Assembly (NCBI GenBank): GCA_963746845.1
Contig: CAVVCZ010000007.1
Span: 1 to 64,000, forward strand
Direction: 5' to 3'
Length of the DNA: 64,000 nucleotides
Source of the DNA: an uncultured Chloroflexia bacterium
Lineage (GTDB): Bacteria; Chloroflexota; Limnocylindria; Limnocylindrales; CSP1-4
Shown: one piece after another, positions 5,276 to 24,534 of the stretch
Numbering within the stretch: the first letter of the stretch is position 1
Layout of the letters: each line of letters opens with the position of its first letter
The notes under the pieces: model-generated
Told to the model about the DNA's origin: nothing
Databases searched by the model: none
The model's input: only the letters and a program-made list of their open reading frames with translations
Program-made: the position numbers and the translations under genes

Positions 5276-5554
5276 TCACCGATCGAGGGTCCGGTAGGTA
5301 CTCTCCGAGCGACGGGCGACCCTCAGGATCACCACGAGGCGCGACCCGTCGTCGACGACGTAGATGACTCGCAGGTCCCCGACGCGGAGGCGCCAGAACT
5401 CGGTACCGGCAAGCTTGGTCACCCCGGGCGGACGCGGGTCGATCGAGAGGGACAGGATCGGGCCCCGAAGTCGAGCCGCCTCGCCTGGTGGAAGGTGGCG
5501 CAGCTGGCGCTGGGCGGCTGGCGCGATGTCGACGCGGTGACCCTGCCGGCTCAC
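5276..5554 (-). CDS. RelE/ParE family type II toxin
   Basis: DPRPPGVTKLAG..WRLRVGDLRVIY signature; overlaps the antitoxin stop. Confidence 0.88.
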   Translation of the reverse strand: MSRQGHRVDIAPAAQRQLRHLPPGEAARLRGPILSLSIDPRPPGVTKLAGTEFWRLRVGDLRVIYVVDDGSRLVVILRVARRSESTYRTLDR

Positions 5555-5808
5555 TCCTCATTCGTGCCGTACGCGGCGCGCGTCTCGGCGGCGAGCGTCC
5601 CGAAGAACGACTCGGCCGCCTCGCCGCCATCTCGACGGTATTCGGCAAGGGCCGCCTGCGCCGACTCGAGATCCTCCTTGGTCTCCGCCGCCTCGAGCCA
5701 GGCCCGGATCGCCTCGTCGACGATCTCGCGGACGCTTCGATCCGATCGCGCGGCCTCGACCTTCACGGCCCGGTAGATGTCGTCCGGGAGATCGATGGTG
5801 ACCTTCAT
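5551..5808 (-). CDS. Ribbon-helix-helix antitoxin
   Basis: MKVTIDLPDDIYRAVKVEAA...SVREIVDEAIRAWL with an acidic C-terminus, directly upstream of the RelE-like toxin. Confidence 0.85.
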   Translation of the reverse strand: MKVTIDLPDDIYRAVKVEAARSDRSVREIVDEAIRAWLEAAETKEDLESAQAALAEYRRDGGEAAESFFGTLAAETRAAYGTNEE

Positions 5809-5815
5809 CTCACCA

Positions 5816-5843
5816 AGGATACCAGGAAGCTGGGTTCCTGCAA
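5816..5843 (-). promoter_or_regulatory. Putative leaderless TA promoter with palindromic operator
   Basis: Minus strand reads TTGCAG-N16-TATCCT ending about 7 nt before the ATG; inverted repeat CAGGAA-N6-TTCCTG (5823-5840) overlaps it. Confidence 0.55.
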
Positions 5844-5979
5844 GGACCCGTTTGCGACGGATGTCGCATGCGGTTGTCGACGAACAGGCCTGGTTGCGCG
5901 GAAGCGCAAGTGGTGTCCTTGGTCGCGGGTCGAGCGTGAGACGCATGTGGACCCACGGCAGACGACAAGGAACCCTGCG

Positions 5980-6159
5980 ATGTCCCAGACCCGATCCGCA
6001 CGCCGCGGCCACATCGACCCGCTGATCGCCCTCGCGCTCGGCGGCCTCGCGATCGTGCTCTTCGTCAGCGCGATCGTCGTCACGCGCCCGCTCCCGACGA
6101 CCTCCGCCGCGACCGCCGGCCTGCCGACCGCCCAGGTCCTCGTCCGAACCCTCGACTGA
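5980..6159 (+). CDS. Small single-TM hypothetical protein (59 aa)
   Basis: AAGGA RBS before ATG 5980; hydrophobic stretch PLIALALGGLAIVLFVSAIVV. Confidence 0.6.
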   Translation: MSQTRSARRGHIDPLIALALGGLAIVLFVSAIVVTRPLPTTSAATAGLPTAQVLVRTLD

Positions 6160-6180: not shown

Positions 6181-7518
6181 TCAGGACGCGGCCAGGAGCT
6201 GGTCTGCGAACCCTTCGAGCGACCTGGCCACCCTGGCCAACGGTTCCATCAGGGCGGGCGTGCACGCCTGGCCGCAACGGACGGCGAACGCCGCCGCATC
6301 CCGCAGCCGCTCCTCCATCAGGATCCAGGCGGCCTCCCGGTGCGGCAACAGGTAGTCGACCGAGTAGAACAGCTCGAACCCCGGACCGGCGGTGGCACCC
6401 GGCATGTCCCAGCCGACCGGCTGGGTCGTCACGACGGAGCCGAGCGGCTTGACCGCCGCGTACATCAGCCCGACCGAGACATCCGCGAGGACCTTGAGCT
6501 GCTCGGGCGTCTCGTCCGTGTGGGCGAAGTAGCGCGAGAGGAGCTGGAGGAGGACCTCGTAGACGACGTTGAGGAGGTCCATCGTCCGCGTCGTGCCGGG
6601 GTCGCTGATGAGCGGCATCGGCACCCCGGTTGCCTGGGGTCGGACGTTCGCCGCCACGACCGGCCGGGCGGGCTCGAAGTCCGGGTCTGCGCGCTTCAGC
6701 GCGAGGTACTCGTCGAGGACGGCGAGGAGCCGCCCGAAGTGGGCGTCGCGCCACTCGCCCAGCGCCCCCTCCCCCTGCTCGACGATCGTGTCGATCGCCT
6801 GCCGTGCGGTCGCCAGGTCCGTGACCGCGACCAGCTCCTCCCATCGGAAGTGCTCCGCTGTCGCCTGCGCGTTCGTCGGACCGATGAACAGGCGCCCGGG
6901 ACCGAGCCGGCCCTCGAGGTGTTCCAGGCCGGCGCCGATCGACCGGTAGAGCTGGCCGATCGTGTCGAACTCCTGCAGGTGCGGGACGATCTCGTCCTCC
7001 TCGTCGTGCGGCAGCGCGACGGCCTGTTCGATCGCCGCGAACCCCTCGGCGTCCTCGACGTCCATGCCCTCCGGCCGCTCGAGGAACGCGAAGTGCCGGA
7101 GCGCCGCCTCGCCGAACGGCAGGAGCTCGATCCGGACGCCCGCCGGGTAGCTGTAGGCCGGCATCGGGAAGTTCGGACGGGCGAGACGCGGGGCGGCGCC
7201 GACGGCCGTCAGGAGGTTCTGGACGAGGGCGAGGTGGAGCATCTCCTGCTCGCCGATGCTCAGCAGCGTCTTGCGCCAGCCCTGGATCGCGGTCAGCTGG
7301 TCCGCGCTGACCCCCTCGCCGACCTTCTGCTTGAGCGAGAACGCCGCGAACAGGTACTGGAGCATGATGAGGTGCTCGAGCTCGGCGGCCTTGCCCAGGG
7401 TGTAGATGAGCGCTTCCCGGTGTTCGAGCCCGGAGCCGTGCTCGCCGCCCTGGCCCCCGCGAACCGCGAGCACGTTGGCAAGCGGTCCGTGCGGGACCGG
7501 CGAGGCGTTCTCGATCAT
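6181..7518 (-). CDS. Ferritin-like domain protein (VioB/PF12902-like)
   Basis: AAELEH..MLQYLFAAFSL, EQEMLHLALVQNLL, TIGQLY, IVEQGEG and AHFGRL di-metal-type motifs. Confidence 0.85.
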   Translation of the reverse strand: MIENASPVPHGPLANVLAVRGGQGGEHGSGLEHREALIYTLGKAAELEHLIMLQYLFAAFSLKQKVGEGVSADQLTAIQGWRKTLLSIGEQEMLHLALVQNLLTAVGAAPRLARPNFPMPAYSYPAGVRIELLPFGEAALRHFAFLERPEGMDVEDAEGFAAIEQAVALPHDEEDEIVPHLQEFDTIGQLYRSIGAGLEHLEGRLGPGRLFIGPTNAQATAEHFRWEELVAVTDLATARQAIDTIVEQGEGALGEWRDAHFGRLLAVLDEYLALKRADPDFEPARPVVAANVRPQATGVPMPLISDPGTTRTMDLLNVVYEVLLQLLSRYFAHTDETPEQLKVLADVSVGLMYAAVKPLGSVVTTQPVGWDMPGATAGPGFELFYSVDYLLPHREAAWILMEERLRDAAAFAVRCGQACTPALMEPLARVARSLEGFADQLLAAS

Positions 7519-7594: not shown

Positions 7595-10500
7595 TTACGG
7601 GCGAGCCGGAGCGGCGGGAGCGTTGTCGTCGACCAGCTCGTCGATGGTGCCCGGAAGGGACACCGAGAACGAGTACCTGGCGACTCGCGGGATCCACGGC
7701 CGGAGCTGGGCAAGCGTTCGTGGCGCGATCGGACTCGCGCCGATCCGGGTCAGGCCCTCGCACAGGTCCTCCCACTCGCCACCGCGGACCGAGGGATCCA
7801 GGATCGGGGATTCCGGGCCGATCTGGCAGGTCTGGACGAAGCTCGCCCAGGTCGTCGCCGGATCCTTGCTGGCGTCGGCAAGCCGAAGGAGCAGCTGCGG
7901 TGCGACGTTCGGATAGCCGGACACGACCGACAGGAGGAGGAGCGCGTCCCGGTAGCTGCCGGGCGCCTCGCGCGTCCCTTCGAAGATCGGCCGCTCGTCC
8001 GCCGCGATCGTGCTGCGGATGAGCCGATACGTGTTCACGAAGCGCTTCGTCGCTCGGGGTGTCCGGAACAGCGGCGACAACCGCTGCATGTCCTCGACCT
8101 CCCACCGGTTGAAGACCAGCCGCTCGATCTCGAGGTCCGGGACGGGCGGCGGCTTGATGTCCGGAGCCGGCGCTCCGTCATTGGGCGTCGGGCCGGGGAC
8201 ATCCGGGTCGGGGAGTGATGAACGGGGTTCGAGGGCGTCACTGCCCGATGGGGAATCGGGTCCGTAGCCACCGGGAAGCGGGCCCTCGACCGCGACGTCC
8301 TGGCCGACGAGATCACCGACGAGTCCCACGAACCCCTGATCCTTGATCGGTCGCAGATAGAACGGGATCTGGAAGATCTTCTCGAGGTAGTCCTGCGGGG
8401 TCGACATCCGGGTGAGTCCTTCCGAGATTCCGGACGGAGCCGGAGGCTGGCCCGAGAGCAGCTCGCGGTACTGGTCCTCGAGACAGCGACGCAGCCAGCG
8501 CGGGTCGACGGCGACCACGACGACGAAAAGCCGGAATGCCAACAGGAGATGGACGGCCTCGAGGACTTCGATCACGCGCCGCGGCTTGCACCGATCGAGG
8601 TCGTCGATGTAGAGGACGATCCGGTCGATCGGGATCTCCTTCGGATCGTCGGCGGTCGGCGGATCCGTCGCGTTCGGCGGGTCCGGCGGGTCGGTCGGCG
8701 TTGCCTGTTGGGCGGGCTCGCCCGTCGACTGCGCGGGGGCGGCCGCCTCGAGCTCGATCCGTCGCTCCCGCTGTTCCATCAGCTCGCTCAGGCGCTCGAA
8801 GTCGCGCCGGATCAGCGAGACGAGCCCGACCCGCGACGAGTAGGCCTGGCTGGTCACTCGCTCCTCGAGGAAGCGATGGATCTGACGAGCCGGCTCCAGA
8901 TCGTCACGGCTGGTCTCCAGCTCGCGGACCCGGGCCTCCGCCATCCGCGCCCGTTCCTCCAGCCGGGCCTGTTCGGCGACGGCAGCGTCCCGAGCCTGCT
9001 CCTGGGCCTCGACGATCGCCTTCGCCTGCGCGTGCTCCGCCGCCTCGATCCGGGCCGAGGCGGCCTCGAAGGCGGCGATCAGGCCGCCGACCTTCGAGAT
9101 GTACGGGCCCAGCGCGATGACGAAGCCGACGATCGCGGTGACGAGCGGGACGAGCGCCGACCAGCCGATCGCCCGGGTCAGGACGATCGCCGCGACGGTC
9201 GGAGCCGCGACGATGAGCGTCAAGGACGCCGCTCGGCGCAGGCGATCCCGACGGCTGCCCCGGCCGAGCTGCTCGATCAGCCACTTCCAGAGACGGGCGA
9301 GCCGGGCCGGCCAGGTGCTGACCTCGGCGATCGGCTGCTGCAGCTCCTTGAGCATCGCGTCGCTCGACGGCTGCCCGACCTGGGTCGCAAGCTCGCCGAC
9401 CTGGCGCATCACCTCCGGGTCTGCCGCAACCGCGTCCTTGGCCGCGGCGAGGGCCAGCTTCGGGTTCGGCTCCGGCACGCTCGCGGCGTTCCTGGCGGTC
9501 TCGAGTGCCGCGGTCGCCGCCTCGCTGCGCTTCCTGGCTGCCGCCAGCTCCGACTGGGATTCGTTGAACAGCCCGTTGGCATCGGTGAGCTCGCTCTGGA
9601 TCGTCGCCCGGATCTCGTCGCCGGTCGGCTCCCCGGAGACCGCGTTGAACAGCTCCTCGAGGATCTCCGAGACGAGGCTCGCCCAGAGGTTGGCATCCAG
9701 GTAATGCCACGCGTTGAACCGGATCTGGACGACGCTCGAGCAGAACGGCGAGCTGGTGCCACGCTCCGCCGCTTCGCTCGCGCGATGCGCGATCTGCTCC
9801 TGCAGCCGCTCCATGAAGAAGCTCTTGCCGCTGCCCCAGTCGCCGAACAGGCCGAACGCCAGCGGTGGCTTGACGGCTCGAGCCGTGATCAGGCTGGCGA
9901 TCGCCTTGACGTCCGGCGTGATCCCGAGCCGGTCGATGCCGAGCAGGCCGTCGGATTGATATCCCGCGAGGCTCGACGCAGACGACAACAGCCGGATCGC
10001 CCAGATCTGATCGACGATGGCAGCGACATCCGCGTACGGCCACGTGGCGAAGCCCTTGCGTCCCCAGCGCGGCCCCCAGGAGTTCTGGACGAGGAACCCC
10101 TGGTCGTTGTAGCCGGCAATCGCGAATGCGTGGCCGCCCAACGTCTGACGGTTGCGATCCGAGGTCCGGATGACCGCGACCGAGCCTCCCTGGGGGCTTC
10201 TGACCGCAACCGGCTTCTCCCAGGCCTTGGTGATCGCCGCGGCAACGACCACGGGTCCGTCGCGGACCAGGGCGGCCTGGATCGCGGGGATGTCCACCGG
10301 CACCGGGACGATCTCGGCCGGTCGGTTGCGCGCGGCCTCGACGGCCAGCTCGTCCGGAATGGTGGTCAGGCTGTCGAGGCCAAGACGCTTCCAGGTGGCT
10401 TCCGAGCAGACGCCGTGCAGGCGGAGTCCGCGGAGCGCGGCCGCGAGGGTCGTCCCCTCGATCTGATCGGGTGGGTCCTTGGGGAACAGGTCGTACTTCC

Positions 10501-10893
10501 GGCCCAGCTCGTAGAGCATGAGCGGGCTGACCGGTTCCTGGATCCCTCGTGCGGCCCGGAGGTGGTCCATGACCGCGGCGATCGCGTAGCCGACGGCCGT
10601 CGGCCCGGCCTGTTCCAGGACCGTGACGTCGGTCCTCCGGGCGTCGAATGCCGGGGGCAGTCCGGGCGGTGGCTGACCGGCTGGTGCCGGCGCGTCAGCG
10701 CGGTCCGGCGACGGGGCGTTCGGCGAGCCGACGAAGCGGACTCGACGTCGTCGACCGGGCGGCGCGATGTCTTCGAGACGCGATCGCCGTCGACCCCGGC
10801 GGTCTCGGGACGGGCGACGGACTCCGGCGCGGGCGGCACCGGCGCGGGCGGCTCCGGCCCGGTTCCGGGACTCTCGGTCGGTGCCGTCGACAC
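7595..10893 (-). CDS. Papain-like (C1) peptidase domain fused to a KAP-family P-loop NTPase; start uncertain, possible frameshift near 10740
   Basis: GGHAFAIAGY..QNSWG.WG.KGF (C1 His/Asn); Walker A GDWGSGKS, FNAWHY, two TM helices, coiled coils, Walker B IVLYIDDLDRC, YLEKIFQIPF. Confidence 0.85.
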
Positions 10894-11028
10894 GAGCGAC
10901 CTCGCTGGCGGACGACCTCCGGCCCGCGCGGACCACGTGAGCGGAAAGGCCGACGCGGCCGGTTATACGCGCGGACCGTCTCGCTCGCGTTGCTCGAGCG
11001 ACGAGGGGCTGCGCACACGGCAGGACCG

Positions 11029-11061
11029 GATTGAACCGTCCGGTGCTTCCCCTCCCCCAGT
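11029..11061 (+). promoter_or_regulatory. ECF sigma-type promoter of the lipoprotein gene
   Basis: GATTGAACC-N17-CCCCAGT-type motif, with spacing identical to the motif upstream of the ECF gene (14590-14622, minus strand). Confidence 0.6.
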
Positions 11062-11099
11062 AGCTCGGCAGACGCAGCCGGCGCGGTCGAGGGAGGTGG

Positions 11100-11633
11100 A
11101 TGATGACGAGGATCTGGACCCGGCTCGCGGGCACGATCGGGATCACGCTGCTCGCGGGGTGTGCCGCGACAGGCGGGGCCACACCCTCGGCATCCCGAAC
11201 GGCGGCCCCGGCGATCGAGTCCGTGCTACCAACGGCAGCCTCGCTCGCTCCGTCCCCAAGCACAATGCGGACCAGCCACCCGGCGACGGCACTCCCCGCG
11301 GGCGACCGTTCGCTCTGGCCGCAGGGCGGACCGGTTCCTGATCAGCTCGACGGTGACTGGTTCGATGCCGGCGGGGTCAAGCTGACCCTCCACGACACCG
11401 GCTACTACTTCTACGCGCCGCCCGGGATCGACGTCGGTGGCGACATCGTGTTCGATGGCAACAAGGCGGCGCTCTTCAATGCCGGCCCATGCGGGATCGT
11501 CCTCCCCGACGGCATCGGCACCTACACGTGGGAGATCAACCCGGATCAATCGCTGACGTTCCACCACACGAACACGGATCCATGCCATCGCGGCGACTTC
11601 ATCAGCTCGCCGAAGTGGTTCCGGAAGCCGTGA
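11100..11633 (+). CDS. Lipoprotein of unknown function
   Basis: GGAGG RBS, lipobox LLAGC, Ser/Pro linker, small beta-rich domain with two Cys. Confidence 0.8.
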   Translation: MMTRIWTRLAGTIGITLLAGCAATGGATPSASRTAAPAIESVLPTAASLAPSPSTMRTSHPATALPAGDRSLWPQGGPVPDQLDGDWFDAGGVKLTLHDTGYYFYAPPGIDVGGDIVFDGNKAALFNAGPCGIVLPDGIGTYTWEINPDQSLTFHHTNTDPCHRGDFISSPKWFRKP

Positions 11634-16981: not shown

Positions 16982-19300
16982 TCAGACCGGTGCAGTCTCC
17001 TGCGTGCTCGCGAACCATCGCGCGACCTGGAGACGGGTATCGACGCCGAGCTTGTTGAAGATGCTCGCGACATGGCTCTCGACGGTGCGCTCGGAGATGA
17101 ACAGGCGCGCCGCCACCTGGGCATTCGTCGCGCCATCGGCCACGAGCGCCGCCACTTCCATCTCGCGCCGCGACAGCGGACCGGGTGATACGGACGGTGC
17201 GGCCGGAGGGGCGGCCGGCCGCCGCGCATCGACCGCATAGTCGACGACCTCGTCGCGAGTCATCGCCAGCCCGGCGGCGTACGCAGTCAAATACGCCGCC
17301 TCTCCCAGCGCATGGCGGGCATCGTCGGCCGCTCGCCGCCGGGCATCGCGGTACGGTTCCATGAGGGCCGAAGGGATCGACTCGAAGATCATGTCTGAAG
17401 CACCCAGCAGGGTGGCGGTCCGAGATGCAGACCCTCGCGTCATCTCGATCGAGGCGAGCAGGGCAATGGTTTGCGCGAGGCCAGTCCGATCGTCAAGCTC
17501 ACGCTCGAGAGCGACGGCTCGTTGAGCAAAACCGGCGGCTTCGTCGCGATCTCCACGGCCCAGGCTTGCGCGGGCAAGCAGCCGGAACATGATCCCGCGA
17601 ATCCATGTCTCGCCCAGTTCCTCACTGAGATGCACGCCCTCGCCTGCGATCGCGATCGCCGCATCGAAGTCACCCTGCCCGAGGAAGGCGTATCCGCGCG
17701 CATCCAGGGCGTGAAGCGTCGCGGCCTGCAGGTGCATGGACCGCGCCAGGTTGAGGGACTCGTCAGCAAACGCGGCGGCGTCGTCCGAACGGCCTTCGAC
17801 CCACGACACCAATGAGAGGAATGCCAGCGAACGCGCGACGACATCCGCGTCGCCGATTGCGCGACCGATCGACCCGGCCTCAGCGAACATCTGCCCGGCG
17901 AGCGTGTAGTCATTCTGCAGGAAGGTGACGACCCCGGCGGTCGATAGCGCGCGGGCACGTGACCTCGTGGCAGCCGGGACCGACTGAAGCAGCGCAGCGA
18001 AGACGCGGCGAACGTCGGTGATCGGTCCCTGGGCCGACCAGTAGACCCACAGGTCGCTGCAGATGCCAACGCCGCGCTCCGCCTCCGAGGGATCACCAAG
18101 ACAGAAGTCGATCGCGGCCCAGAGGTTGGCTCGCTCCGCCCGGACCCGGCGAAACAGCTCGACCTGGCGCTCATCTTCGGCGCCCACCGCAACGGCAAGA
18201 TCAGCGATCCAGTCCCGGTGGCGCGCGCGCAATGTTTGTTCGGCTCCTGCCTCTCGAAGCCGCTCGCGGCCGAACTGGCGAAGCGGTTCGAGGAGCCGGA
18301 AGCGGTCGGCGGCCTCTCCCTGTCGTCGTTTGAGCACGGACTTCTCGACGAGCGACCCGACGAGCTCCGGGATCTCCTCGGCTTCGAGCCCGTCGCCGGC
18401 ACACACCGCCTGTGCCGCATCGAGCTCGAACCCACCAGCGAATACCGAGAGGCGGCCCCACAGCCATCGCTCGTGCTCACTCAGGAGCTGATAGCTCCAG
18501 TCGATCGCCCCGTCGAGGGTCTGCTGGCGGAGCGATAGGCTGCGGTCCCCTGTGCCCAACGCCCCGAGCCGGGCTGAAAGTCCACGATCGAGGGCGTCCA
18601 GGCCGAGAGCGTTGAGCCGGACCGCCGCCAGCTCGAGCGCCAGCGGGATGCCGTCGAGGTGGGTGCATACGCTCAGGACCGCGGCGGCGTTCGCGGCGTC
18701 CGCGGCGAAGCCTTGCTGGACGGCACTCGCGCGCTCCACGAACAGGGCCACGGCGTCCGATCGGAGAAGGGCCTCCGGCGACGCATCGCCATCGTCGGGC
18801 AGCGACAGGGTCGGTACATCGATCACGACTTCGCCGGTGACCCCGAGGGCCTGCCGGCTCGTGGCCAGGATCCGCACGTCGGGACAGGCGCGCAGCAGTG
18901 TTCCCGCCAGGACGGCCGCGGCGTCGTGGACGTGCTCGCAGTTGTCGAGGATCAGGAGCGGCCGTTTGTCGGCGAGATAGTCGCTGAGGGTGGAGACGGC
19001 CCAGCTGGCTGAGTGGTCCTGGAGTCCGAGCGCGGCGAAGACCGCCTGCGGGACGAGCTCGGGGTCCTGGATGGGCGCCAACTCGACGAACCAGACGCCA
19101 TCGGGGTACTGGCGGGCGCTCTCCCGGCCGGCCCGCAGGGCGAGCTTCGTCTTGCCGACACCGCCGGCCCCGGTCAGCGTCAGCAGCCGCGTCGAGACCA
19201 GGGCCCGCTTGAGGTCGGCCAGGCCCTGACGGCGGCCCACGAAACTCGTCAGTTCGACTGGCAAGTTGCCGGCATGCAGGGTGGCTCGGGTGGGCGCCAA
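16982..19300 (-). CDS. STAND ATPase/TPR/LuxR-HTH transcriptional regulator
   Basis: GNLPVELTSFVGR, Walker A GAGGVGKT, LILDNCEH, LDGIPLALELAA, and a C-terminal HTH (LSRREMEVA...KLGVDTR). Confidence 0.93.
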   Translation of the reverse strand: MAPTRATLHAGNLPVELTSFVGRRQGLADLKRALVSTRLLTLTGAGGVGKTKLALRAGRESARQYPDGVWFVELAPIQDPELVPQAVFAALGLQDHSASWAVSTLSDYLADKRPLLILDNCEHVHDAAAVLAGTLLRACPDVRILATSRQALGVTGEVVIDVPTLSLPDDGDASPEALLRSDAVALFVERASAVQQGFAADAANAAAVLSVCTHLDGIPLALELAAVRLNALGLDALDRGLSARLGALGTGDRSLSLRQQTLDGAIDWSYQLLSEHERWLWGRLSVFAGGFELDAAQAVCAGDGLEAEEIPELVGSLVEKSVLKRRQGEAADRFRLLEPLRQFGRERLREAGAEQTLRARHRDWIADLAVAVGAEDERQVELFRRVRAERANLWAAIDFCLGDPSEAERGVGICSDLWVYWSAQGPITDVRRVFAALLQSVPAATRSRARALSTAGVVTFLQNDYTLAGQMFAEAGSIGRAIGDADVVARSLAFLSLVSWVEGRSDDAAAFADESLNLARSMHLQAATLHALDARGYAFLGQGDFDAAIAIAGEGVHLSEELGETWIRGIMFRLLARASLGRGDRDEAAGFAQRAVALERELDDRTGLAQTIALLASIEMTRGSASRTATLLGASDMIFESIPSALMEPYRDARRRAADDARHALGEAAYLTAYAAGLAMTRDEVVDYAVDARRPAAPPAAPSVSPGPLSRREMEVAALVADGATNAQVAARLFISERTVESHVASIFNKLGVDTRLQVARWFASTQETAPV

Positions 19301-19436: not shown

Positions 19437-20630
19437 TCATCGACGGGACCGGACTCCGGGAACCCGATCGGACGAAAGGAGGACCACGATGCCCGCCCTC
19501 GAAAGCGCCGAGATCGTCGAGACGACGAACACTCCGGCCCGCAAGGCGTGCCTCACCGCCGGCTGCGCGTGCAGGGACGCGCGGATCGTGTCGTTCCGCC
19601 GGGCTGCGTTCCACGCAGCCGTCGCCCGAAGTTCCGGCGAGACCGCCGACCGGACCATCCCGGCCGAACCCGAGTGGCGGATTCCCACGATGGACGACCC
19701 GACGATCGGGGGCGCCATCGACGACTGAGGCGGCACCAGCGTCGAGCCGAGCGGGATGCCGTCGGCGAGGTAGATGCCGGTCGGGCCGTCCGGCAGCAAG
19801 TCGAACGTGAAGCCGACGTCGTAGCGCTCGAGGATGGCGCTCATCACGGTCGCCCCGTCGACGCGGTCGCCGGCGACGAGGGTCCCGAGGAGCCGGCCGT
19901 CGGCGAGCGGATGGCCTGGCGAAGCATGGAGCACACGTCCGTCGTCGAGGACCAGCCGGACGACCTCGTGGGTCGGCGGGACCGGGGTCTGGCCGATGCG
20001 CGTGACGGTCGCGACGAAGCGCCGGCCGGCTGCATCGATCGACCAGACGTGCATCCCCACGCGGACGTCCTCGATCGCGACCTCGCCGCCGAGCGTCGCG
20101 ATCCGCGTCCCCCGGGCGAGGCAGATCGGGCAGTTCGGCTGCGTGGCCGGCACCTGCTGATCGATGGTCACCGCGCCGTGGTCCTCGATCGTGCCGGTGG
20201 ATCGGCGGCCCGCGCCGGCGCCGGGCGGCGGCATGTTGAGGTAGTCAAACCGATAGCTCCCGCTCGCCGCCGGATCGAGGGTGATCGCCCGGACCTGCTT
20301 CCAGAGCTGGTAGATCGCAAGCTTCTGGGCGTCCGTGAAGGTGGAGCCGGAGATGCCGAGACGGGCGGTGACGGCCGCGAACCCGTCGGTGTCGGCCTGG
20401 GCCTGCGGGAAGTTCTCCTTGGCGACGGCCATCTCGTCCGCACGGGCCACCGGGTACAGGTCGGGGTCGCAATACCAGAGCGGGCCGAACTCGTCGATCA
20501 GGTGGAGCTTCAGCTCGGCCGTCGTCAGCGCCCGGCCGGCTGACGGCGCCGGTGGCGACGGTTGGCTGGTCGAGCACGACGCCAGGACCACGAGGATGAA
20601 GAGCACGGCAGCGAGGCGGGATCGGCTCAT
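19437..20630 (-). CDS. Lipoprotein with C-terminal Hint (intein-like) domain; the natural end is probably near 19725
   Basis: Lipobox VLASC; Hint block A CLARGTRIAT..G...IED.RVG; block B SPGHP; terminal TFDL...IYLADGIPLGST. Confidence 0.85.
   Translation of the reverse strand: MSRSRLAAVLFILVVLASCSTSQPSPPAPSAGRALTTAELKLHLIDEFGPLWYCDPDLYPVARADEMAVAKENFPQAQADTDGFAAVTARLGISGSTFTDAQKLAIYQLWKQVRAITLDPAASGSYRFDYLNMPPPGAGAGRRSTGTIEDHGAVTIDQQVPATQPNCPICLARGTRIATLGGEVAIEDVRVGMHVWSIDAAGRRFVATVTRIGQTPVPPTHEVVRLVLDDGRVLHASPGHPLADGRLLGTLVAGDRVDGATVMSAILERYDVGFTFDLLPDGPTGIYLADGIPLGSTLVPPQSSMAPPIVGSSIVGIRHSGSAGMVRSAVSPELRATAAWNAARRNDTIRASLHAQPAVRHALRAGVFVVSTISALSRAGIVVLLSSDRVPGVRSRR
19489..19728 (+). CDS. 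Small Cys-rich hypothetical protein (79 aa, CLTAGCAC)
   Basis: Strong RBS GAAAGGAGGA 5-6 nt before the ATG, GC-rich third codon positions and an upstream shared motif. Confidence 0.7.
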   Translation: MPALESAEIVETTNTPARKACLTAGCACRDARIVSFRRAAFHAAVARSSGETADRTIPAEPEWRIPTMDDPTIGGAIDD

Positions 20631-20775
20631 CAGGACCATGACCGCTCGACCATCGGCCAACGACGTGGTTCGCCCTCGGTGGGTTCCGCCGACGAGGCGG
20701 CTGTGCACGCGAGAGCCCGGGCGGCGATCGCCAACCCGGGCTCCTGGTTCGGTGTCGGTGGACGACGGCGTGCCG

Positions 20776-22970: not shown

Positions 22971-23725
22971 CCGCGATCGCGCGCCGGGAGGCCCGCCTCG
23001 ACGTCCGCTGGATCGTCGGCGCGGCATGGGCCCTGGCCGCTGCAGCGGAGGTGACCGGCCGGGGCAGCCTCCTCAACCACGACCAGCTGATCCATGGCGG
23101 CCTGCCCCGGCCGGTCGCACTCGTCCTCTTCCTTGTCGCGTGGCAGTTCATGGTCGCGGCGATGATGCTGCCGTCGGCGCTGCCGCTGATCCGGCTGTTC
23201 GACCGGGCCTCGGCGACGCAGCCTCGGGCGCGGGCGGCGCAAACGGCGTTCGTCGCCTCGTACGTGCTCGTGTGGACCGCGTTCGGCGCCGCGGCGTTCC
23301 TGTTCGACACGATCGTCCACGCGACGGTCGATGGGTCACCGTGGCTCCTGGCCCACGGCTACCTGATCGGCGGCGGCACCTTGATCGTCGCCGGTCTGTT
23401 CCAGTTCTCGCCGTTGAAGGAGGCCTGCCTGAGGCAGTGTCGCAACCCGGGCGCCTTTCTTCTCCGCTACTACCGTCGCGGGGTCGGACGGGCATTCGTG
23501 ACCGGCGCATGGCACGGCGTGTTCTGCCTCGGCTGCTGCTGGGCGCTGATGCTCGTCGCGTTTGGCCTGGGGATGGCCAACCTTGTCTGGATGGCCGGGC
23601 TGACACTCCTGATGACGCTCGAGAAGCGCTGGGCTAACGGCCCGCTGCTGGCGCGCGTCAGCGGCGCCTGGCTGACGCTGGTCGGGCTCGTGATTGTGGC
23701 GCAGCCGCTCTGGGGTACGAGCTAG
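22967..23725 (+). CDS. DUF2182 metal-binding membrane protein
   Basis: MVAAMMLPS, QFSPLKEACLRQCR, GVFCLGCCWALM; the usual partner of DUF1326. Confidence 0.88.
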   Translation: MTAIARREARLDVRWIVGAAWALAAAAEVTGRGSLLNHDQLIHGGLPRPVALVLFLVAWQFMVAAMMLPSALPLIRLFDRASATQPRARAAQTAFVASYVLVWTAFGAAAFLFDTIVHATVDGSPWLLAHGYLIGGGTLIVAGLFQFSPLKEACLRQCRNPGAFLLRYYRRGVGRAFVTGAWHGVFCLGCCWALMLVAFGLGMANLVWMAGLTLLMTLEKRWANGPLLARVSGAWLTLVGLVIVAQPLWGTS

Positions 23726-24534
23726 ACCGGGACGGCGGCTCCCTGGAGGAACGCCCGCCCGCGGATCTCGGCGCTGCCGGCGAGCTGCGGGTCCTGGTCG
23801 TACCGCGCGGCATTGAGCGCCTGGTTCACGCCGTGCACGAGGTCGGTCAGCGGCGCGTTCGGATGCTGTCGGAGCTCGTGCAGGATGTAGTACGTCGCCG
23901 CGCCGTTGTACCGGCCGTTGATCTCCGCGTCGGCCGATGTCTGGCCGCTCTTGCAGCCCGAGATCAGCGCCAGGTGGAGCTTCGCCGGCGCCGTGAGCCG
24001 GGTCAGGGTCACGCCACGCTTGCGGGCCTTCTCGATCTCCTCTGCGATCTCTCGCGGCGGGTAGATCTCCCGCGCCTTCTGGCCCTTCGGCAGCAGCGCC
24101 CGCGTGAGGTTGCCCGAGTGGCAGCTGTCCGAGATCCAGACGAACTCCACGCCAGCGGGCACCCTGGAGAAGATCTTGTTGAACTGGTCGTCGCGGATCG
24201 CGTGCTTGCTGCTCCAGTCGAAGTCGACCGGGCAGATCACCTCGTCGAGACCGTCGATCTCGTGACCCGTCCGCGACGGCATCTGGGCGCCGTGGCCGCT
24301 GTAGTGGAAGAGCGCCCGGTCGCCGGCTGTGAGGCCGGCAACGAAGGTCTCGAGCGCGGCGAGGATGTTCGCGGTCGTGGCCGTGGCGTCGGTGACCGTC
24401 TCGATGTCGGCCGGCTTGAAGCCGGCGAGCTGGGTCAGGTACGCCGTGACGTCCTTGATGTCGTTGACGCATCCATGGAGCTCGTTCGGCGCGGGGTAGG
24501 CGTCGATCCCGACGAGCAGGGCCCTGCTGGCCAT
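23722..24534 (-). CDS. Caspase-family (C14, metacaspase-like) peptidase
   Basis: RALLVGIDAY..LHGCVND, HYSGHG (catalytic His), DSCHSG (catalytic Cys), QDPQL. Confidence 0.9.
   Translation of the reverse strand: MASRALLVGIDAYPAPNELHGCVNDIKDVTAYLTQLAGFKPADIETVTDATATTANILAALETFVAGLTAGDRALFHYSGHGAQMPSRTGHEIDGLDEVICPVDFDWSSKHAIRDDQFNKIFSRVPAGVEFVWISDSCHSGNLTRALLPKGQKAREIYPPREIAEEIEKARKRGVTLTRLTAPAKLHLALISGCKSGQTSADAEINGRYNGAATYYILHELRQHPNAPLTDLVHGVNQALNAARYDQDPQLAGSAEIRGRAFLQGAAVPV

Follow-up and report, generated by a model that had tools for sequence, protein, structure and literature searches.

A conserved papain-family pseudo-protease fused to a membrane KAP NTPase, with a possible role as bait or sensor

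The PifA protein of the F plasmid, QatA, the EF_KAP-type fusions and Tmn of the YobI family have in common an NTPase of the PF07693 family whose Walker motifs are intact and whose domain contains two helices. The protein considered here shares these features. It is encoded on the minus strand of a 64,000-nucleotide stretch of DNA (the window: contig CAVVCZ010000007.1, positions 1 to 64,000) from an uncultured Chloroflexia bacterium and carries, ahead of a KAP NTPase, a papain-family (C1A) domain in which alanine stands in place of the nucleophilic cysteine. Papain pseudo-proteases are familiar from eukaryotes (SERA5, testin, soybean P34 and scabies SMIPP-C), where Cys has changed to Ser, Gly or Ala and the fold is kept for binding, and plant NLR receptors can contain integrated decoys, in which a dead enzyme domain is built into an NTPase receptor. 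The present fusion differs from these in being bacterial and of independent origin, and its NTPase is a membrane KAP rather than a STAND. The case for a pseudo-enzyme is strong; that for a role in defense is weak.

The likeness to Tmn extends to organization: a single gene outside any conserved operon, with a fused variable region. In EF_KAP and Tmn, however, the variable part is C-terminal and either unknown or a solenoid, whereas in the window's protein it is N-terminal and a recognizable dead enzyme. PMC13001434 describes Tmn as acting alone, without a conserved operon, binding a phage protein, turning over ATP and exporting Mg2+, and 10.1101/2025.10.07.681051 reports KAP fusions that protect Enterococcus against phages. 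Kaur et al. (2020, PMC7159879) proposed that dead peptidase and other enzyme modules of the VMAP/vWA-MoxR ternary systems act as decoys or bind peptides, and in EAD systems KAP can take the place of STAND (Kaur et al. 2021, PMC8195603; PMC10907252). The fusion resembles the ternary and EAD systems in having dead enzyme modules in a swappable slot and the same module repertoire; it differs from them in that no MoxR, VMAP or EAD partner was seen and the carrier is a membrane KAP NTPase. The VMAP/vWA-MoxR core, understood as MoxR and vWA together with VMAP or iSTAND in one neighborhood, was not found, there being no conserved neighbors; the vWA-fn3 gene at a distance of 3.6 kb encodes a signal-like N-terminus and does not lie beside other carriers. 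With the xylellain-type C1A proteases (3OIS) and the C1A-hydrolase-like fusions, the protein shares the fold by profile, the Gln, His and Asn-Ser-Trp-Gly residues, a second cysteine in GVC and the lack of a signal peptide. The fused clade departs from the xylellain type in having lost the nucleophile and, for the most part, the propeptide-like motif and in carrying an NTPase in place of the hydrolase-like domain.

A papain-KAP fusion was not found in the full-text literature, a search outside which fall the PMC7159879 and bioRxiv supplements, which may list it. KAP as a whole word is absent from the main text of PMC7159879. In the KAP table of PMC8195603 the 30 rows covered show KAP alone or KAP+FGS, and "papain" is absent from that file; the supplements of the same paper contain no papain-KAP fusion in the portion covered (12 of 13 files, 32 of 67 KAP places). 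One paper has both terms, papain and KAP, used apart (10.64898/2026.10.19.760177), and a papain survey leaves multidomain prokaryotic forms unanalyzed (PMC10380794). The fusion is apparently an undescribed variant that unites the anti-phage KAP fusions with dead-enzyme decoys.

The gene lies in a single open frame on the minus strand, which runs from 11263 to the stop at 7595 and in which Pfam detects both KAP_NTPase (E 1.7e-29; PF07693, 103 bits against a curated cut-off of 20) and Peptidase_C1 (E 1.4e-4; PF00112, 22.5 bits against a cut-off of 20.7). Its features are the following.

10891..10903, minus strand: GTG at 10893, most likely the true start, preceded at 5 bases by a GAGGT ribosome-binding site; its frame differs from that of the rest of the gene.
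10650..10745, minus strand: zone of a probable single frame switch (hexamer coding model), in the N-terminal tail, which is rich in Pro and Ala and precedes the papain domain.
7595..10711, minus strand: the part of the C1A-KAP gene that is reliably coding, 1038 codons and a stop; the frame is open upstream to 11263.
9980..10660, minus strand: papain-family (C1A, xylellain-like) pseudo-protease domain, as predicted from Pfam, profile alignment and family counts.
10586-10615, minus strand: the stretch EQAGPTAVGY, active-site loop by motif position.
10610-10612, minus strand: oxyanion Gln, by motif position.
10595..10597, minus strand: Ala codon GCC at the nucleophile position, read directly and placed by profile alignment.
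10406..10408, minus strand: Cys of GVCSE, a second, non-nucleophile cysteine by profile alignment, common to active relatives.
10124-10138, minus strand: GGHAF, with the catalytic His kept at 10130..10132 (motif and alignment).
10073-10087, minus strand: QNSWG, with the catalytic Asn kept at 10082..10084 (motif and alignment).
9821..9844, minus strand: KAP NTPase Walker A motif, which all 47 fused proteins have intact.
9098..9232, minus strand: two transmembrane helices predicted from hydropathy, at 9176-9232 and 9098-9154, with a short loop between.
8591..8614, minus strand: Walker B of the KAP NTPase, DDLDRC, intact in 45 of 47 fused proteins and with no match in 2.
7598..8140, minus strand: C-terminal region kept across the family by homologue comparison, behind a Pro-rich linker.

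The two helices correspond to residues 494-512 and 520-538 of the 1038-residue translation and fall between the two Walker motifs; one further hydrophobic segment, past Walker B, is taken to be NTPase core. Profile match, intact motifs and hydropathy together bear out the description of this part, given in a first-pass annotation of the window, as a KAP NTPase with Walker A and B motifs and two transmembrane helices. The G+C content at third codon positions (GC3) is 0.88, and the gene is intact downstream of its 5' tail. The host genome (G000; 3.56 Mb in 12 contigs, 92% complete) holds one copy of the fusion, and a promoter scan at the locus found none.

A profile of the fused family (34 proteins) matches xylellain (PDB 3OIS) with an E value of 7.7e-23 and also aligns to cathepsin K, and in this alignment the family's Ser/Ala column falls on the catalytic Cys of both xylellain (QGRIGSC) and cathepsin K. 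The window's protein has Ala at this site; its codon, GCC, is two base changes away from a Cys codon and lies in a strongly coding frame, so that the Ala is not one miscalled base. The earlier claim that Ala replaces the nucleophilic Cys in a C1 domain that keeps Gln, His and Asn thus agrees with both the motif positions and the profile alignment. The domain does not have the Cys nucleophile that, with His, marks an active C1A protease, and the comparison shows a papain domain that, for want of a nucleophile, should be unable to cut. The cysteine of GVCSE had been raised as a possible catalytic residue. In the profile alignment, the family's GVC falls on the second cysteine of xylellain and off the catalytic position, and the same cysteine is found besides the catalytic one in 53 of 59 active unfused relatives; since the two coexist, it is very probably no substitute nucleophile. 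The shortening of the loop between Gln and nucleophile, also reported in the first-pass annotation, is genuine (one residue) but is no sign of decay, for active Cys-His proteases of the same genus share the spacing.

Homologue searches yielded 121 alignable domains, of which 110 were retained after those more than 90% alike had been dropped (51 KAP-fused, 59 unfused). A further 11 rows were excluded as too short, too divergent or frameshifted; they include the fused proteins P0213 and P0222, neither of which has Cys at the nucleophile site. Cys and His occur together in 0 of the 51 fused domains and in all 59 unfused ones. The expectation that loss of Cys would be shared by C1-KAP homologues is therefore upheld: 50 of 51 lack it, and the remaining one, P0003, has Gln in place of His. 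At the nucleophile site the fused domains have Ser (27), Ala (11), Gly (5), Val (3), Ile (2), Met (1) or Asn (1). The nearest homologue of the window's protein, at 59% identity, is likewise without Cys, and on these alignments the loss is a trait of the family rather than private decay. Elsewhere in the site, 37 of the 51 fused domains retain His, 40 retain the oxyanion Gln, and 50 each retain Asn and Trp; such a relaxed cleft suits a binding surface or a fold better than a strict substrate trap. A DxRD motif, which by analogy with xylellain we take to be propeptide-like, precedes the domain in only 4 of 51 fused proteins as against 55 of 59 unfused ones.

In a tree of 99 rows a branch with a support of 99 sets the fused domains apart, and they remain a single clade when the active-site columns are removed (support 100/99; 57 of the 99 rows). 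The window's domain and P0002 nest within this clade, on a long branch. The fused relatives are thus not independent, and the counts reflect roughly a single fusion with subsequent loss rather than 51 events; the dead domain was derived once from cytoplasmic xylellain-like proteases. P0003, the sole fused carrier of Cys, is the deepest branch under midpoint rooting, and judging by this protein the Cys-His dyad may have been disrupted on two occasions, each time differently. Sister to the dead domain is a widespread family of xylellain-like proteases that are active, lack a signal peptide and carry a fused, unannotated hydrolase-like domain with a GHSAG motif (L004-L009, P0121-P0181). A subgroup of this papain-hydrolase family has an oxyanion loop one residue short and an intact Cys. 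Descent of the window's domain from the short-loop proteases of its own genus, which a similar level of identity had suggested, was discarded because the domain nests among the KAP-fused ones with and without the active-site columns.

The ratio of nonsynonymous to synonymous substitution rates (dN/dS) was determined for the closest 22 of 153 possible DNA pairs. One pair was identical and three were saturated; in the 18 measurable ones, values for the dead domain ranged from 0.11 to 0.38 and were mostly above those of the KAP piece. The dead papain domain is kept by purifying selection. Mean identity is 0.39 among fused and 0.47 among unfused domains, and a few positions are conserved in the fused clade only. 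The Cys-less ones among 35 shorter matches resemble frameshifted or cut family members, not stand-alone proteins. With Cys missing from the homologues and GVCSE off the catalytic position, the part of the original decoy-sensor idea that called for a conserved pseudo-protease under purifying selection is supported; its link to defense, for which no island, partner gene or viral-contig locus was found, is not.

Behind the papain module the fused proteins show, between Walker A and Walker B, one hydropathy peak in 26 and two in 19 of 45 family members at the threshold used, and a signal-like N-terminus occurs in 0 of 47. With Walker A before and Walker B after the helical hairpin, and no signal peptide, the papain module would face the cytoplasm. 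Sister KAPs align to the window's protein from the Walker A region onward and differ in their N-terminal modules, which were scanned in 86 of about 120 new representatives; some KAPs have short N-termini only. The papain-bearing family is small: of the best 150 clusters formed at 50% identity, 17 contain the module. On a KAP tree of 258 rows, 35 of 38 papain carriers fall into one group, weakly supported (77), that also includes one LGFP-bearing and one truncated protein; the other three lie elsewhere. The C1 label changes five times on this tree, at least three of these changes being forced, which points to module swapping. The modules found across the KAP subfamily (P0036-P0309) comprise TIR, DUF4062, trypsin, ClpN-like, metallophosphoesterase, phospholipase-C-like, PNPase, SIR2, CHAT and lipase domains, as well as Tle1-like, amidase, kinase, EVE, LGFP, PG-binding, NB-ARC, WD40, TPR and LRR domains. 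Many of them look dead at the positions that we assume to be catalytic, although, unlike the papain count, these counts were scored without an unfused control. The trypsin triad is intact in 6 of 22 modules; the first metal-binding His is gone in all 4 full-length metallophosphoesterase modules; the presumed catalytic motifs are altered in three phospholipase-C-like modules, one PNPase and one kinase; and one TIR subtype has no Glu at the presumed position (24 of 24), most of the 12 rows listed for another keeping it.

We put at about even the chance that the fusion works on its own, with a bait or sensor in the cytoplasm that gates a membrane NTPase of the Tmn/PifA kind. The protein would act as a single membrane-anchored KAP NTPase whose dead N-terminal papain module serves as the specificity element and not as a weapon: as the only variable part, and a non-catalytic one, this module would set specificity, and, being dead, it would have to bind rather than cut. 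Its ligand might be a protein or peptide, such as an invader's protease inhibitor, protease or substrate. Binding would release the NTPase, and the oligomerized NTPase with its helices would provide the output, be it ATP drain, ion leak or growth arrest, as reported for Tmn and PifA. More broadly, and as a tentative suggestion about which we remain rather doubtful, one could envision an undescribed class of bacterial integrated-decoy membrane receptors. Time and again the KAP chassis would have taken up an enzyme domain (papain, trypsin, metallophosphoesterase, phospholipase-C-like, PNPase, kinase or TIR), killed its active site and turned it into bait for the proteins of an invader, the NTPase pore being the effector. 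In its papain form such a receptor would detect phage protease inhibitors, or phage papain-type proteases and their substrates. Tailed phages (Streptomyces, Gordonia, Lak, Burkholderia jumbo) encode papain-type proteases (phage records H1-H24), and, according to PMC10380794, tailed phages have acquired xylellain-type genes. The phage records gave 24 weak papain matches, none covering 80%. In the ESM Atlas, the clusters nearest to the papain domain are mostly viral stand-alone papains, a lead only; a full-length search returned KAP clusters only, under 0.8.

A number of observations weigh against a bait or sensor of this kind. The cleft residues are relaxed rather than fixed (His 37/51, Gln 40/51). 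There is no conserved neighbor gene, the surroundings differing at every locus, and the search for co-occurrence with defense islands proposed in the first-pass annotation came out negative: PADLOC matches 11 of 98 neighboring proteins (11 loci, threshold 1e-10, no matched background), mostly through generic methyltransferase, ABC/SMC, subtilase and caspase/CHAT domains, with PDC-S01 in 2 loci. The gene's G+C content equals that of the genome (0.70 and 0.71), and no related locus was found in viral contigs (54 pattern matches, 0 confirmed). No other PF00112 match exists in the 92% complete genome, which leaves no host papain paralogue to mimic and weakens the idea of a bait for inhibitors of a host protease; a second PF00112 gene is present in only 2 of 7 other carrier genomes, which are incomplete metagenome-assembled genomes, and only one of those genes is of the sister type. 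The window's gene is absent from all the close dN/dS pairs. Some sister modules look intact or nearly so (CHAT, lipase, two amidases, three Tle1-like modules with Ser and His, and the six trypsins), so that the slot can also house a working effector. Finally, the QatA model gives a short match of 82 bits against a cut-off of 600, and the match to PifA (PDC-S20 in PADLOC) is partial, with Walker-motif pieces only, at 24-43 bits. Among the 98 neighboring proteins there is no Qat match, and QatBCD neighbors are lacking; no Tmn match is listed for the protein in PADLOC or NCBIfam scans, and its N-terminal accessory domain is large, where Tmn has no accessory domain.

The distribution of the fusion bears on the alternatives. 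It occurs in 7 of 80 genome loci, from Acidobacteriota, Chloroflexota, Pseudomonadota and Methylomirabilota, and in ten more fusions from metagenomes, retrieved with a search pattern that misses the window's own subgroup. The window's KAP type is present in 1 of 24 genomes of the same genus, with a different N-terminus, and in 0 of 200 genomes drawn across the order (five candidates scored in each). The range of the fusion is very patchy. This is hard to reconcile with non-immune signaling, in which a peptide or protein of the host would be bound by the dead domain, and a membrane complex would be assembled or disassembled by the KAP NTPase, much as the animal KAP protein Kidins220 scaffolds signaling. 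Housekeeping neighbors, the lack of an island, host-like G+C and purifying selection over four phyla all speak for such a role; the absence of a fixed partner gene and a sister-module repertoire typical of conflict systems (TIR, DUF4062, SIR2, PNPase, CHAT, trypsin, NB-ARC) speak against it, and we consider it unlikely, if plausible. The domain might also be a structural relic, that is, a former protease effector that lost catalysis and whose fold was kept as an auto-inhibitory cap or oligomerization handle, with nothing foreign bound. Relaxation of the cleft and adjacent motifs while core residues stay, the Cys retained by the deep-branching P0003 and the greater diversity of the fused domains are consistent with this view. 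A fixed structural role does not predict the many unrelated folds that fill the same slot, however, and some KAPs have short N-termini only, while a few positions are conserved in the fused clade alone; we consider it unlikely.

Ser being the commonest residue at the nucleophile site (27/51, with His in 24/51), and silicatein providing a precedent for a switch from Cys to Ser, a still catalytic neo-enzyme has to be considered. We judge it highly improbable, given that the window's copy has Ala, that 23 of 51 domains have Ala, Gly, Val, Ile, Met or Asn, and that His has been lost in 14 of 51, on several branches. As for loss of the Cys through private decay or sequencing error in this genome, a probable upstream frameshift, the long branch and the lack of read support could be invoked in its favor. 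The Cys-less nearest homologue, the 50 of 51 fused domains without Cys and the two base changes needed refute it for the family and reduce it to a negligible chance for the window's copy.

Whether this particular copy is functional is a separate question, raised by its 5' end. The gene had originally been taken to start at 10893; the GTG there is out of the gene's frame, and the hexamer coding model favors a frame switch near 10740. Under this model a start at 10893 with one switch near 10740 scores 45, whereas the main frame by itself scores 5.6 and -0.4; a second optimum for the switch lies near 10655. GC3 and the hexamer model both prefer the frame of GTG 10893 to about 10740 and the main frame beyond. 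Relatives have 29-129 residues ahead of the papain domain, save one that is cut short. The out-of-frame tail weakly resembles a homologue's C-terminal linker (E 7e-4), which we take as low-complexity chance. Read data amount to one run (share 0.08), with no RNA data set listed and zero coverage over 10422-11627, a segment that includes the Ala codon and the switch zone. Because the switch lies upstream of the active site, it does not explain the Ala at the nucleophile site. The copy may be broken or mis-assembled. That it is a pseudogene broken by an N-terminal frame switch, within a family that is itself functional, is a serious possibility, albeit one we lean against. Besides the switch near 10740, it is favored by the finding that 0 of 17 control orthologues in the assembly have a split frame, a sign that errors are not rife there, and by 3 to 4 of the 35 short matches elsewhere that resemble broken family members. 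That control is small, however (6,359 amino acids), the remainder of the gene is intact with a GC3 of 0.88, and translation could still begin at another GTG, at 10936, which is in frame and has no ribosome-binding site. The 12-contig assembly suggests long reads, and single-base indels are common in long-read assemblies.

The genes around the fusion can be described briefly. Downstream by 77 bases and on the same strand (6181-7518, minus) lies a gene for a ferritin-like protein (PF12902) resembling the C-terminal part of VioB; it was dismissed as a partner, since none of the other loci compared has a homologue. At 5276-6012 (minus) lies a toxin-antitoxin pair of type II, in which a ribbon-helix-helix gene overlaps a RelE/ParE-type toxin gene. 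Also present are a stand-alone caspase-like (C14) peptidase gene at 23722-24534 (minus) and a lipoprotein-like open reading frame with a Hint domain at 19437-20708 (minus). A LuxR-type STAND regulator (NB-ARC, TPR, HTH) at 16982-19300 (minus) has counterparts adjoining the KAP gene of locus L046 and the protease gene of L111. Positions 1-37000 of the window are syntenic with sites in the same genus that are occupied in G007, G013 and G023 by a gene for an active papain-hydrolase protein, or in G023 by a KAP gene with a different N-terminus, and the syntenic loci L046, L111, L112 and L114 point to a variable spot for papain-hydrolase and KAP genes.

KAP NTPases have been linked to phage defense for twenty years, and their triggers are barely known. 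In the present family the sole variable part is a recognizable dead enzyme, which would give a direct handle on the problem: the bait could be purified and used to fish for its ligand, and modules could be swapped on one chassis. The family adds a bacterial case to the papain pseudo-proteases, with fusion and catalytic loss almost perfectly linked, and would offer a test of the proposal that dead enzymes serve as decoys in bacterial immunity.

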